This document shows positions 50,775 to 56,150 of a stretch of DNA of 64,000 nt, piece after piece (positions within the stretch are counted from its first letter, which is position 1; each line of letters starts with the position of its first letter). The stretch is from Alphaproteobacteria bacterium (GTDB taxonomy: Bacteria; Pseudomonadota; Alphaproteobacteria; SP197). Both the position numbers and the translations under genes were made by a program. Location of the stretch: contig OZ219747.1 in NCBI GenBank assembly GCA_964291265.2, forward strand, positions 672,001-736,000, in the 5' to 3' direction. The notes beneath the pieces were generated by a model. The model was not told where the DNA came from. It did no database searches and saw nothing but the letters and a program-made list of their open reading frames with translations.

Positions 50775-50924
50775 TGTCGGCGGCGATTTAGAACGGCGGG
50801 ATATTGGCGGAGAACCGCTCTTTTGGGCGCTGATCGTGTGAGTGGGTGACCACGACAGGAGAACGTGCGGCATTGGACGAAGGTCCGCCCGGTCTTTGTT
50901 TTCTGCCTATTGTTGGATCCCATT

Positions 50925-51270
50925 GGTCTTGCATTGACGTTGACGATGTCGTTCCGGTCGGCGTTTTCTGGCGTTCGGCGTTTGTGGAACGTGATGTGGG
51001 AGGGGAGCTTCAGGCTTTTGCGCGTGGTTTCGTTCTGGCGTTCTCCGGCCTCGTCGTGGTTCGTCGGGCGGGACGATCTCGAGGCTGGAGAGCTGACGGT
51101 TTCTGTTGCGCTGGGCGAAGAGGCTGCGTGCGTTGCGGTTGCGGCGGCGCAGGGTGCGGCAGGCGTCGAGTGTTTTCGGGCGGATGCTGCGACCTGTGAG
51201 CCAGTCCGGCGGCGGATCGGGCGTTGCTGCGGCTCAGCGGCTGCGGCAGTCTCGTGATGTGGTGTCGTTT
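50925..51270 (-). pseudogene. Diverged, internally deleted second copy of the Toprim gene 3' half
   Basis: Reads PDWLTGRSIRPKTLDACR...LFAQRNR and HDEAGERQNETTRKSLKLPSHITFHKRRTPENADRNDIV, paralogous to 52055-52645. Confidence 0.85.
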
Positions 51271-51866
51271 GGACGGCCCGGGGGTTTCCCGGGGAGGCTG
51301 AGAGGCGCGTCGGGGTGAGACGTTCTCATTCCTGGATGGTAACGCGTGACCGCGTTCAAGGGTCTTGCGAGATTACGTGTCCCTTCCGTAGCCGCGTGGC
51401 GGTTCGATGTCCTCGAGAGCCTCGATGTCGGCATCGGCGACGCTCTGCAGGCGTTCTCCGTAAGGCGTGTCACGGAGGGTTTCGGGGATGCTGTCGAGGC
51501 GGTCACGCCATTCGTCCTGCAGGGTGCGGCAGGCGTCGAGTGTTTTCGGGCGGATGCTGCGACCTGTAAGCCAGTCCGGCCAGCGGCTGCGGCAGTCTCG
51601 TGATGCGGTGTCGTTTGGACGGCCCGGGAGTTTCCCGGGGAGGCTGAGCGGCGCGTCGGGGTGAGACGTTCTCATTCCTGGATGGTAACGCGTGACCGCG
51701 TTCAAGGGTCTTGCGGGATCACGTATCCCTTCCGTAGCCGCGTGGCGGTTCGATGTCCTCGAGGGCCTCGATGTCGGCATCGGCGACGCTCTGCAGGCGT
51801 TCTCCGTAAGGCGTGTCACGGAGGCTTTCGGGGATGCTGTCGAGGTGGTCACGCCATTCGTCCTGC
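51151..51866. repeat. Tandem duplication (370 bp + 346 bp) inside the transposon
   Basis: 51151-51520 and 51521-51866 are near-identical; the second lacks 24 bp; junction at GCAGGG microhomology. Confidence 0.93.
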
Positions 51867-52009
51867 AGGGCGCGCAGTTCGGCCACGGCGTCGTTCCAGC
51901 GTTGCGGTCGCGAGCGCCGGTCACGGTGCTTTGGGGTGTGGACGGGAGGGATGCCGGCCTTGCGCCGTTCCCGGTATCGCCGCTGCTTTTCGGCGGGCGT
52001 GAGGGGCAT
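51719..52009 (-). CDS. Small conserved hypothetical protein (basic N-terminus, acidic helical C-terminus ending PRGYGRD)
   Basis: AAGGAG RBS; MPLTPAEKQRRYRERRK...RRSRPQRWNDAVAEL..LQDEWRDHLDSIPESL..IEPPRGYGRDT. Confidence 0.8.
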   Translation of the reverse strand: MPLTPAEKQRRYRERRKAGIPPVHTPKHRDRRSRPQRWNDAVAELRALQDEWRDHLDSIPESLRDTPYGERLQSVADADIEALEDIEPPRGYGRDT

Positions 52010-52035
52010 GAGTGGTCTCCTTGTGACGGACGTGG

Positions 52036-52929
52036 TCATGATCTCGCTTGTGGTTCTTTGGTCCTGGCGTTGACGACGTCGTTCCAGTCGGCGTTTTCCG
52101 GCGGTCTGCGTCTGTGGAACGAGACGTGGGAGGGGAGCTTCATCTTTTTGCGCAGGGTTTCGGCCTGTCGCTCTCCGGCCTCGTCGTGGTCCTGGGCGAG
52201 GACGATGGTCCTGACGTTGGGCAGGCTGCTTGCGGCGAGGCTGATCTGTTCGTGCTGTCTTCGCGAGGGTGCCCCGGCGGTGGAGAGGAAGGCGTGGCTG
52301 GGGGGACATTGGTCGATCTGGGCCAGGCTGAGGGCGTCGACGGCGCTTTCGGTGATGACGAGGGCCTCGAGGTCCGCGGCGGTTCCGGCGCGGACGGCGA
52401 ACAGGCTTCGGGTTCCACCGGTGGCGAAGCGTTTCGGTCCGTCGGGGGGACCGATCTCGAAGCCGGTGAGCTTTCGCTTCCTGTTGCGATGGGCGAAGAG
52501 GACGCGTCCGTTGTGGTCGCGGCGGACCAGGGGGCGGCAGGTGTCGAGGGTCTCCGGGAGGATGCCGCGCCCGGTGAGCCAGTCCGGGGCCGCATCGGGC
52601 GTTGCCGCGGCCCAGAGGCTGCGGAAGTCGCGTGGCGCGGTGTCGGGTGCTGTGAAGCGGGTGCAGATGTCGGCGAAGGCCAGTCCGCGGTTGAGCATGA
52701 AGTCGATGACGGTTCCGTTGTCTTCATCGTTCTGGGTGTTGAAGTAGACCCAGTGTCCGTTGTTGAGGCACTTCGTGACGAGCTTCGGCAGGCCGGGTGC
52801 GCACAGGACGGGGTTGGCGCGTGTCGAGGCCTGTTCGTCGCGGACGTATCCCCAGTCGGCGGCGATGCGTTCGAACGGCATGCGCTTGACGGCGTCGAAG
52901 TCGACGCGGCGGGGTTTATCGGGTTTCAC
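52036..52929 (-). CDS. DUF3991/Toprim-domain primase-like protein
   Basis: GTG overlapping istB stop; DNGTVIDF, WLTGRGI, VLFAHRN..LTGFE, Toprim VITESAVDALS, STAG, LAQDHDEAG, DWNDVV. Confidence 0.85.
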   Translation of the reverse strand: MKPDKPRRVDFDAVKRMPFERIAADWGYVRDEQASTRANPVLCAPGLPKLVTKCLNNGHWVYFNTQNDEDNGTVIDFMLNRGLAFADICTRFTAPDTAPRDFRSLWAAATPDAAPDWLTGRGILPETLDTCRPLVRRDHNGRVLFAHRNRKRKLTGFEIGPPDGPKRFATGGTRSLFAVRAGTAADLEALVITESAVDALSLAQIDQCPPSHAFLSTAGAPSRRQHEQISLAASSLPNVRTIVLAQDHDEAGERQAETLRKKMKLPSHVSFHRRRPPENADWNDVVNARTKEPQARS

Positions 52930-55107: not shown

Positions 55108-55139
55108 GAACTCCCTCCCTTTGGTTCCTCAACGCCGCA

Positions 55140-55670
55140 TCACGGGTCCCTCAGCACCACATGCGTCACGACCCGTCCGCATCTGGCGCACCGAAGCGGC
55201 GATTCGCGCCGCTCTTGCGCCTTCACAACCGCAGGTAGGGAGGTCGGCAGCAGTCGGGAAGGGTGGTCCGTAACGATTTCTTCAGAACCGGCGTCTCCAG
55301 ACACCGCCGGAACGTCGCCAAGCAGCACCACAGCAGACGTCTGCGTGCCCATGATCTCGGCAACCATCGCCGCCCTGGCCTTCAACGCACGCGCCTCCTC
55401 CGCCTTGCGGAGCCGGTAACGCCGCTGGCGGTGACGGCCCGTCTCACGGCCCTTCAGCGTGCTCTGGTAGCGACGACGCGACGCGCGGCGCCGCTCGATC
55501 CGGGACCGCTCCCTGCACTCCTTGGAGCAATACACATGTCCCCGGTCACACGACCGGCAGAGAACAACCTGCCGCTGACACCGCCTGCAGTTGAACAGTC
55601 GTCCTGTCGTGCACACCGTCCGTCTCGAGAGCGGGGGTGGACCCGGACGCAAAATGGCTCGACAATACAC
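55140..55670 (-). CDS. Cys-rich putative Zn-binding protein with Arg-rich helix
   Basis: RLFNCRRCQRQVVLCRSCDRGHVYCSKEC...RRYQST..GR..RQRRYR...CARC; start uncertain. Confidence 0.7.
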   Translation of the reverse strand: MYCRAILRPGPPPLSRRTVCTTGRLFNCRRCQRQVVLCRSCDRGHVYCSKECRERSRIERRRASRRRYQSTLKGRETGRHRQRRYRLRKAEEARALKARAAMVAEIMGTQTSAVVLLGDVPAVSGDAGSEEIVTDHPSRLLPTSLPAVVKAQERRESPLRCARCGRVVTHVVLRDP

Positions 55671-55991
55671 GGGAGTTCGGTCCCCCGTGACCGGCTCGTC
55701 CGGGTGCTGCGCCGGGGGGCGTCACAACTCCGCCCGGCATCGCATCGCTCTTTCTCTTGATGCCGATCTAGCATCCACCCGGGGCGGCGGCAAAGACGCC
55801 GCCCCGGGACCGGACAACGCGACCCGCCCACAGGGAAGACAAACAATCCCGCGAGTGCCTCGGAACCGGAACCCTCCCGGCAACCGTCACCAAGACCGAA
55901 GCAGAGGTCGACGGAACCCGAACCGGACCAAAACGACAATAGGAAAAGACGGCGGCGCTCGGGGAGACAACCAGCCGAACACTCAAACCAC

Positions 55992-56030
55992 GACAACAGG
56001 ACGTGACAATAGGACCTGACAACAGGGAAG
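55992..56030 (+). repeat. Subterminal 13-bp-period direct repeats (GACAAYAGG core)
   Basis: gacaacaggacgt gacaataggacct gacaacagggaag; another gacaatagg at 55935. Confidence 0.7.
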
Positions 56031-56150
56031 AAACACGACCCTGACAAAGCGCGGCAAATCGCCGAAATCCCGCCGTTCTATGCAGCCATCAACAGGTTTC
56101 TCAGCGCCTGCGCCATTCGACGCAAGGGGCGAGCATGCACATCGTGGATG

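Follow-up and report, generated by a model that had tools for sequence, protein, structure and literature searches.

How the strand-transfer intermediates of insertion sequences pass to the replication machinery, and whether IS21 elements copy out, are the questions raised by a transposon in the 64,000-nt stretch of alphaproteobacterial DNA analysed here (the window). In the available text of the 2024 structure paper (PMC11208146), copy-out of IS21 is proposed, not proven. An initial annotation of the window described a five-gene IS21-family element that carries a primase-like Toprim gene in its transposition operon.

Boundaries, copies and mobility of the element

The annotated boundaries were confirmed: the element runs from a TGT start at position 50775 to a terminal ACA at 56094, and its imperfect inverted repeats, the right (downstream) one at 50775..50809 and the left (upstream) one at 56060..56094, match in 26 of 35 nt (34 of 49 up to 50823). 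The target duplication GGTTTC is present, as annotated, at 50769..50774 and 56095..56100, but its length of 6 bp is that of a minority of copies; among the 32 full copies in the genome, the duplication is 5 bp in 22, 6 bp in four and 7 bp in one, and five have none. These full copies show 98.2-100% identity, and the genome-wide count of ends gave 40 right ends with the same tip as the element and 47 left ends. The unoccupied target site was found in two sister runs, X2 and X3, with the empty-site joint from 50768 to 56095 in X2. The element is real, mobile, recently active and present in many copies.

Target immunity is not evident: five copies are nested within further copies of the element (9 of 87 flanks). 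Multi-copy DNA accounts for 44 of the 87 flanks versus 483 of 2,413 genome samples, an excess explained by survival bias. The orientation of the copies relative to the replichores, a test of lagging-strand targeting, showed no bias (15 of 31 copies, p = 1.0).

IS21 core genes and family assignment

As annotated, the element holds five co-oriented open reading frames, all on the minus strand. They are preceded by a non-coding leader (55671..56059) without a sigma-70 promoter consensus or Rfam match, and scans of the element for these features and for a terminator were blank. The first gene is a Cys-rich ORF of at most 176 aa (55140..55670; possible start GTG at 55616) with eight conserved Cys. 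It is separated from istA by 32 nt, without overlap, gave no family match in the Atlas search, and is common to the whole IS21 branch, whether or not the Toprim gene is present. The DDE transposase gene istA (53614..55107) encodes 497 aa, with a triad, D124/D187/E233, that falls in invariant motif columns of 34 homologues; the protein matches the NCBIfam IS21 transposase NF033546 with 222 bits (cut-off 160). The AAA+ helper ATPase gene istB (52916..53617, 233 aa) has intact Walker A (GGQGTGKT) and Walker B (LLILDE) motifs, and its product matches Pfam IstB_IS21 PF01695 (E 2e-50) and, slightly below the cut-off of 200, NCBIfam IstB NF038214 (192 bits). The reading-frame coordinates bear out both the ATGA overlap of istA and istB and the Toprim GTG start at 52929 within the 3′ end of istB.

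An IstA with an intact triad, an IstB directly downstream, ends in CA and short duplications were all found. The element resembles IS21 and IS5376 in its DDE IstA with a Mu-like C-terminal barrel, its AAA+ IstB, the overlap of the two genes, the TG...CA ends, the mostly 5-bp duplications and the low target specificity, as far as these are described in the available text of PMC11208146 and PMC10122671. In contrast to the istA-istB organization of IS21/IS5376, it measures 5.3 kb, with a Cys-rich gene upstream and a primase-like gene downstream, and its IstA has 497 aa instead of 400. IS21 ends typically carry at least two repeated units, L1/L2 and R1/R2 (PMC11208146); here, a search of the terminal 300 bp on each side with two probes for the IR core, allowing 3 mismatches at most, gave one match per end and no second IR-core repeat (L2/R2), although weaker repeats could escape it. 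The canonical two-ORF layout is replaced by four conserved genes plus one passenger, and the element is therefore filed as an IS21 variant rather than a canonical member. We found no description of an IS21 element with this four-gene layout in the literature; a deposit in ISfinder or TnCentral is possible.

The PRGYGRD gene and the right-end tail

The passenger is the gene of the 96-aa PRGYGRD protein (51719..52009, minus strand), which has its own ribosome-binding site and no Pfam family. It had been regarded as coupled to the Toprim stop through an in-frame ATG; this ATG exists at 52039, but the coupling is probably incidental because AGGAG precedes the ATG at 52009 and homologues align from that Met. 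As a dedicated accessory factor, which the initial annotation took it to be, the protein was rejected: it was found in one of the 14 other Toprim-bearing genomes, at only 43-44% identity, and 78%-identical copies in the same genome belong to an unrelated IS66-remnant/IS110 repeat. For the same reasons, the five-gene layout is not a conserved unit.

Positions 50935-51874, overlooked in the initial annotation, form a mosaic tail of a tandem duplication with a 346-bp period and relics of a second Toprim gene, 81-85% identical. The duplication (51235..51874, minus strand; 51235-51528 repeated at 51581-51874 with 97% identity) contains part of a second PRGYGRD copy as well as short remnants of Toprim, and is absent from two 4.97-kb copies of the element. 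The relic of this second gene (50935..51267, minus strand) matches codons ~95-165 and ~242-289 at 81-84% nt identity; the middle, including E194, is gone.

Distribution, inheritance and origin of the Toprim gene

The order Cys-rich ORF–istA–istB–Toprim was found in 14 other alphaproteobacterial genomes, with IstA identities of 49–81%. It was present at 39 of 52 Toprim-led loci in 8 assemblies and in 6 further genomes recovered by IstA alone; sampling 401 genomes across the class added only two further matches. If the closest IstA relatives lacked the Toprim gene, the annotated association would fail, but among the genomes reached through IstA, the four-gene order is present in all four whose IstA is complete and 60-67% identical. 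In a tree of 103 rows, the 13 IstAs that go with this Toprim lineage group as a single clade (FastTree support 1.0), with an SH-aLRT of 100 in 36 rows. Throughout this clade the Toprim gene overlaps or abuts the istB stop, and wherever the region downstream of a clade IstA is intact, we found Toprim there.

The IstA and Toprim trees, which had been suggested for comparison, proved congruent in 6 of 7 splits for 10 elements, a value equalled by none of 20,000 label shuffles. Most splits of the IstA tree have low bootstraps (46-63), and only 3 splits are common to the IstB and Toprim trees. A gene enclosed by the ends of an element is co-inherited regardless of its function. Median NG86 dN/dS values over 45 pairs each were 0.41 for Toprim, 0.36 for istA and 0.35 for istB, which indicates that the Toprim gene is under purifying selection like the two transposition genes. 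The Toprim ORF is unbroken in 31 of the genome's 32 full copies, and its within-genome polymorphism (2 synonymous and 4 non-synonymous codons) is too sparse for a selection test. Of the earlier proposal that the additional genes are accessory factors rather than cargo, the part on Toprim was supported, by its post-istB position in 14 other genomes, its long co-divergence with IstA and purifying selection, and the part on PRGYGRD, in one of 14, was not.

Plasmids supply the nearest relatives of the Toprim protein, both as relaxase fusions and as stand-alone genes. Proteins of 600 aa or more make up 40 of the 148 nearest representatives, and at least 17 of these 40 have a Relaxase, MobA_MobL or Mob_Pre match among the matches listed. 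By sequence relationship, the protein appears to derive from relaxase-linked plasmid proteins. Viral-contig loci (n=20) gave weak matches only, and istA and istB were absent at the five of these loci compared with the element's proteins.

Predicted fold and residues of the Toprim protein

The Toprim gene (52036..52929, minus strand) encodes a DnaG/T7-type primase-like protein of 297 aa that matches Pfam Toprim_2 with 50.2 bits (cut-off 22.1) and DUF3991 with 20.7 bits, below the cut-off of 24.5; the Pfam search gave no PF01807 match. The predicted structure (pLDDT 90.7) comprises a zinc-less ZBD-like domain (residues ~10-95) and an RNA-polymerase/Toprim domain (97-290). The latter superimposes on the T7 primase 1nui_B (VIA: Z 15.7, rmsd 3.1, 177 aligned), and the protein matches 2au3 in Foldseek (E 3.5e-8) and T7 gp4 in an HMM comparison (E 6e-10). 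Its structural neighbours include the primase-dead domain of Twinkle; human Twinkle can no longer prime because of changes in the ZBD and the Mg site (PMC9860392, available in part). The model makes a ZBD fold likely for the N-terminal domain, whose top four VIA matches are primase ZBDs (best Z 6.2). This domain has no conserved cysteines as zinc ligands, gave no Foldseek match on its own and yielded only a weak PF01807 lead in the Atlas search.

The acidic metal ligands E194, D198, D247 and D249 align to T7 E157, D161, D207 and D209, and D281 was assigned to T7 D237 by motif only. All 12 elements compared, with IstA identities down to 49%, retain E194, D247, D249, D281, D284 and R121; D198 is replaced by Asn in five of the 12. 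In the NTP/template cleft of T7 primase, the basic residues are R84, K122, K128, K131 and K137 (PMC12839067). R121 and R174 correspond to R84 and K137, and K166/R167 adjoin K128. At the K122 position all 12 elements have Glu (E158), and at the T7 R124 position all 12 have Gly, Ser or Ala, where 39 of 40 fused relatives have Lys or Arg. The zinc-less N-terminal domain and E158 also occur in relaxase-fused relatives, and are thus not transposon-specific decay. The protein shares its ZBD-like plus RNA-polymerase/Toprim architecture and its acidic residues with DnaG/T7 gp4-type primases and DUF3991-Toprim fusions; unlike DnaG and T7 gp4, it has no zinc ligands and no helicase or helicase-binding domain, and it is encoded alone within a transposon. 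Judging from the model, primase activity is plausible. The host genome encodes its own DnaG. Our literature search brought up no biochemical work on DUF3991 proteins, and the term was met only in tables.

The post-ATPase slot in sister elements

Among 80 more distant IS21 relatives, with 1 kb or more of sequence beyond istB in only 16 of them, none carries Toprim. Instead, 47 of the 80 encode a protein of ~70 aa that ends in an SSB-like acidic D..PF tail. Phe is at the end of 43 of 53 slot proteins of about 70 aa from sisters, and an end Phe plus at least two acidic residues occurs in 38 of the 53 versus 15 of 5,881 other frames. The SSB tail DDDIPF binds DnaG, PriA and Pol III chi (PMC5872125, available in part). 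These Toprim-less sister elements transpose, with target duplications; the Toprim gene is not required branch-wide and is dispensable in the wider IS21 branch.

Other occupants of the slot are L147 and L144, which may be Rep-like HTH and DnaD-like proteins, respectively; L147 has no Pfam match, and L144 matches RepB_primase_C below the cut-off (E 0.018). In L291, an independent IS21 capture, the Toprim ORF persists, but the E, the DxD and the initial D of DWND are lost. A second, separate Toprim lineage lies behind the ATPase gene in DDE/ExeA-type transposons of 6 of 23 same-genus genomes. Somewhat short of an even chance, in our estimate, is the generalization that in this IS21 branch and in the unrelated DDE/ExeA elements a swappable fourth gene, a zinc-free primase or an SSB-tail mimic, couples transposition to DNA synthesis.

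Proposed mechanism and alternative explanations

We tentatively propose, as a reading with nearly an even chance, an active four-gene IS21 element plus a passenger, in which the Toprim protein would serve as a dedicated helper, priming or preparing DNA synthesis on the single-stranded transposition intermediate. IstA would nick and then bridge the element ends, and copying-out of the element would displace a single strand. Presumably taken over from relaxase-linked proteins of plasmids and translated together with IstB, the Toprim protein would prime the second strand, and this priming would raise the yield of double-stranded circles for integration by IstA and IstB. In sister elements, the small protein with the SSB-like tail would recruit host priming or restart proteins from the same slot. 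The Toprim protein would be an enhancer, not an essential factor. IS21 is counted among the circle-forming families in the available text of bioRxiv 10.1101/2023.06.07.543989, where IEE (IS excision enhancer), a PrimPol-helicase for ISs of the copy-out/paste-in kind, is likewise a primase-type enzyme at the replication step of an IS. Unlike the Toprim protein, which is encoded inside the element ends and co-descends with the transposase, IEE has an AEP fold, comes from a gene external to the IS and promotes excision.

A rather unlikely alternative to priming is a dedicated but non-catalytic, pseudo-primase-like helper that binds single-stranded or forked DNA of the transposition intermediate, or IstB, and hands off to host proteins of replication or repair. 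The zinc-less ZBD fold, the lost basic residues and the D198N change in 5 of 12 elements are consistent with it, as are the catalytically dead Toprim retained after istB in L291, the non-enzymatic SSB-tail-like protein that occupies the slot in sisters and the structural proximity to the Twinkle domain; the conservation of five acidic residues and R121 in all 12 elements argues against it, and the zinc-less domain and E158 lose weight by their presence in relaxase-fused relatives. Less probable still is that Toprim is an old right-end passenger kept by selection for a role outside transposition, such as aid to co-resident plasmids or ICEs, or to the host under stress. Its plasmid relatives, the debris and cargo accumulated at the right end, the mobility of the IS21 branch without it and the fact that enclosure by the ends suffices for congruent trees would fit such a passenger. 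Against this stand its fixed position at the istB stop, its presence in all clade members with an intact downstream region, the convergence of two Toprim lineages and two transposase families on the post-ATPase slot, the other common occupant of that slot, which likewise points to replication proteins, and the different behaviour of the true passenger PRGYGRD (1/14).

The maintenance of an excised circle, suggested in the initial annotation, would make Toprim the means by which the circle replicates or persists as a mini-replicon, which we consider very improbable. The primase fold and the strongly run-dependent copy number (element-to-flank contig depth of about 33x, 11-14x and 2-4x) would agree with it. 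TnGBS and p-MULT are DDE elements with conjugation genes and plasmid-derived replication genes, including a plasmid replicase, and their circles replicate; unlike the element, they are large ICEs with a Mutator-type transposase (PMC3942029, available in part). However, no helicase, initiator or iteron-like array was found in the element, and neither the genome nor the contig joint table of three runs, where contigs drop rare forms, contains a right-left junction. Raised coverage, which the initial annotation suggested looking for, did not appear as excess depth beyond chromosomal copies in the contigs: in run X1, by a rough measure and in what may be the source sample, depth was 1,939-2,057 for the element and 58-62 for its flanks, a ratio close to the chromosomal tally of 34-37 gene copies.

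The best reading is that of a swappable replication-helper slot, filled here by what sequence and model indicate is likely a primase. Its natural primase-like, dead-primase and SSB-tail-mimic alleles provide test material for a family with a solved transposase structure. If true, the priming needed at copy-out would come from the insertion sequence itself, through a zinc-free primase captured from plasmid relaxases or through an SSB-tail mimic that diverts PriA, DnaG or Pol III of the host. This would give the first function test of DUF3991-Toprim proteins and would show that transposons have domesticated plasmid priming modules at least twice.

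Element boundaries and gene content

The IS21-family element was placed correctly in the initial annotation, with its TGT start at 50775 and its ACA end at 56094 of the window; the two ends agree at 26 of 35 nt, and GGTTTC lies on either flank. All five genes are on the minus strand: the Cys-rich ORF (55140-55670), istA (53614-55107; 222 bits to the NCBIfam IS21 transposase, cut-off 160, with D124/D187/E233), istB (52916-53617; Pfam E-value 2e-50, Walker motifs intact), the gene of a 297-aa primase-like protein, hereafter Toprim (52036-52929; Toprim_2 above and DUF3991 below the cut-off), and the 96-aa PRGYGRD ORF (51719-52009). 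The three gene overlaps described initially are all present, but the small ORF's ATG at 52009 is preceded by a separate AGGAG. Overlooked at that stage was the mosaic nature of the final 940 bp, where a 346-bp duplication carries half of a second PRGYGRD gene, together with relics of a second Toprim gene (81-85% identity). Transposase, ATPase, ends and duplications all identify the element as an IS21, whereas its gene content does not. Published accounts of IS21 give two genes flanked by inverted repeats, with a proposed copy-out/paste-in route (PMC10122671, PMC11208146).

Copies in the genome and surroundings

The 4.83-Mb genome contains 87 element ends. Its 32 full copies are 98.2-100% identical; 22 of them have target duplications of 5 bp, four of 6 bp, one of 7 bp and five none. 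The Cys-rich ORF, istA and istB are open in 32/32 copies, Toprim in 31/32 and PRGYGRD in 28/32. Five copies are inserted within other copies. Two nests (G000:C2:4058043-4075257 and 4237410-4258495, on the contig of the window) hold at least three copies inserted in one another, and every outer pair keeps its 5-bp duplication. Multi-copy DNA makes up about 20% of this genome, the element alone 3.9%. No replichore orientation bias was found among the copies (15/31).

An empty site was found in two of three public sequencing runs of the same organism, and the joint from 50768 to 56095 in run X2 fixes both element ends. In run X1, which may be the source sample, contig depth, a rough measure, was 1,939-2,057 over the element vs 58-62 in the flanks, about what the 34-37 chromosomal gene copies give.

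The left flank of this copy (50451-50774) is what remains, frameshifted, of the 3′ part of another multi-copy IS, whose frame is 585 aa long and which we take to be IS1634-like. The insertion point lies at the edge of this remnant, just past the parB 3′ end. The adjoining genes (56151-61715) are presumably parB, parA, rsmG, mnmG and mnmE, as named from their ORF sequences. Since the cumulative GC-skew minimum of the contig also falls here, at about 722 kb, this copy lies close to the likely replication origin.

Conservation of Toprim with istA and istB

Scanning GTDB genomes with Toprim as the lead identified 52 loci. The complete four-gene order is present in 39 of them, which come from 8 assemblies titled Paracoccaceae or Alphaproteobacteria; another 3 contain a partial istB together with Toprim, and the other 10 just a Toprim fragment. 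Because such a search is circular, a second one was led by IstA. Toprim followed istB in 4/4 further genomes with full IstA at 60-67% identity (G009, G445, G446, G449) and also in G004 and G016 (49-50%); G015 (47%) has no Toprim, and the sequence of G012 ends within istA. The five-gene layout of the initial annotation is not the conserved unit: Cys ORF-istA-istB-Toprim recurs in 14 other genomes, most with several TGT...ACA-bounded copies, but PRGYGRD in only one of them (43-44% identity, 155 bp from the Toprim match). The PRGYGRD gene is a passenger, because of this single occurrence, of the 78% identical copies in an unrelated repeat of the same genome and of a family size of 1,097 clusters. 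Members in unrelated mobile DNA (G000:C2:3032693-3037794 and loci L232 and L236) lie 3′ of an IS110-like transposase in an IS66 remnant, 3′ of istB in a distant IS21, or convergent with a Toprim gene.

A single clade unites the 13 IstAs that accompany this Toprim lineage, including one from an element whose Toprim is truncated, both in the tree of 103 rows (FastTree 1.0) and in that of 36 rows (SH-aLRT 100). In the tree comparison proposed initially, the IstA and Toprim trees of 10 elements are largely congruent, sharing 6/7 splits, a number reached by 0/20,000 label shuffles, with low IstA bootstraps. The IstB tree is poorly resolved and shares only 4 splits with IstA and 3 with Toprim.

The wider IS21 branch

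The wider branch was sampled through the best 80 of 590 confirmed metagenome loci (4/64 parts scanned, IstA 41-51%). The Cys ORF is present in 78, the remaining two beginning at a contig edge; Toprim is in 0/80, of which only 16 extend 1 kb past istB, and most hold a different gene in its place. In 47/80 (L088-L172; e.g., L093, L098, L138), and in all five named-plasmid loci, this is a ~70-aa WTPEQA protein, whose gene usually begins ATGA on the istB stop. These proteins have an acidic C-terminal D..PF tail, several finishing in DDIPF. Among 53 matches, which are related and were seeded by the WTPEQA motif, not by the tail, Phe is last in 43, Pro-Phe in 30, and in 38 the final Phe is accompanied by two or more acidic residues among the nine C-terminal positions. 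The controls gave 15/5,881 other frames, and the IstA, IstB and Cys protein sets, of about 100 sequences each, gave 0-1. The one protein tested has no Pfam family. The tail resembles that of host SSB, DDDIPF, which binds DnaG, PriA, Pol III chi and exonuclease I via its terminal Phe and acids (PMC5872125). Unrelated genes of 80-140 aa occupy the same slot in L112, L125, L139, L168, L144 and L147, with no Pfam match above the cut-off.

Fold, active site and possible role of Toprim

The Toprim model (pLDDT 90.7) has the primase fold expected from the initial annotation: residues 97-290 match the T7 primase RNA-polymerase domain (Z 15.7, rmsd 3.1, 177 aligned), and the leading Foldseek matches are Aquifex primase, Twinkle and T7. 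The top four matches of the N-domain are primase zinc-binding domains, with a best Z of 6.2, in the range under 8 where the tool advises caution; this domain has no conserved cysteines. Toprim E194, D198, D247 and D249 align with T7 E157, D161, D207 and D209, and R121 and R174 with R84 and K137. Roles of T7 D207, D209, D237, R84, K122, K128, K131 and K137 are those given in PMC12839067.

Model and sequence suggest a site capable of metal binding. In copy-out, the free 3′OH serves one strand and the other must be primed. Past co-inheritance and fold, we infer every step: Toprim would prime, or at least bind and hand over, this other strand, and the SSB-tail protein of sister elements would recruit host proteins for the same step. 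That Toprim actively primes is a tentative reading, a little short of an even chance; E194, D247, D249, D281, D284 and R121 are kept in 12/12 elements. A non-catalytic helper is less likely. Toprim D198 is Asn in 5/12, the K122 position is Glu throughout the family, and charge is lost at the R124 position in this clade and gained at K/R166. The host genome carries its own DnaG frame.

We doubt that Toprim is an old passenger. Its median dN/dS, a crude NG86 estimate on GC-rich DNA, is 0.41; istA has 0.36, istB 0.35 and the Cys ORF 0.54. Toprim-less elements of the branch move, the same 3.4-kb element lying at different sites on two plasmids, with duplications; this, with the absence of Toprim from the 80 loci, indicates that Toprim is not needed branch-wide. 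A service in circle replication is very improbable; the circle junction sought after the initial annotation was seen neither in the genome nor in the run contigs. The preprint on IEE counts IS21 among circle-forming families (bioRxiv 10.1101/2023.06.07.543989). IEE and TnGBS (PMC3942029) are the nearest functional precedents for Toprim. Titles and abstract starts of mainly open-access literature gave no description of an IS21 element with a Toprim/primase gene, or of DUF3991 with a transposase, DUF3991 being named in tables only.

Toprim genes in other transposons

A second, 5.16-kb repeat of this genome (G000:C2:47062-52222, minus strand, 7 matches) encodes, in order, a Cys-rich ORF, a DDE transposase, an ExeA-like AAA_22 ATPase, an AAA_25 RepA-like ATPase and a DUF3991-Toprim whose acidic residues are intact; the last two may form a transposon-borne helicase-primase pair. 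Among the 23 same-genus genomes, five more contain related elements in which Toprim follows the ATPase genes. Loci L226-L228 (genome G005) are a 4.0-kb TGT...ACA element of DDE transposase, ExeA-like ATPase and Toprim, with 15 among the matches listed and 5-bp duplications in two of three copies inspected. In L291 (genome G571, IstA 46%), a same-branch IS21, the Toprim after istB lacks E, DxD and the first D of DWND; it is an independent capture from another Toprim lineage, and its sister L085 has no Toprim. The Toprims of the DDE/ExeA-type elements and the dead L291 Toprim form a lineage separate from that of the element studied here, which groups among relaxase-fused and stand-alone plasmid-type proteins; the acidic site is intact in the element studied here, and a dead one was met only in the separate lineage. 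Given these two separate lineages, the slot behind the ATPase in DDE transposons has been filled by primase-like genes on more than one occasion.
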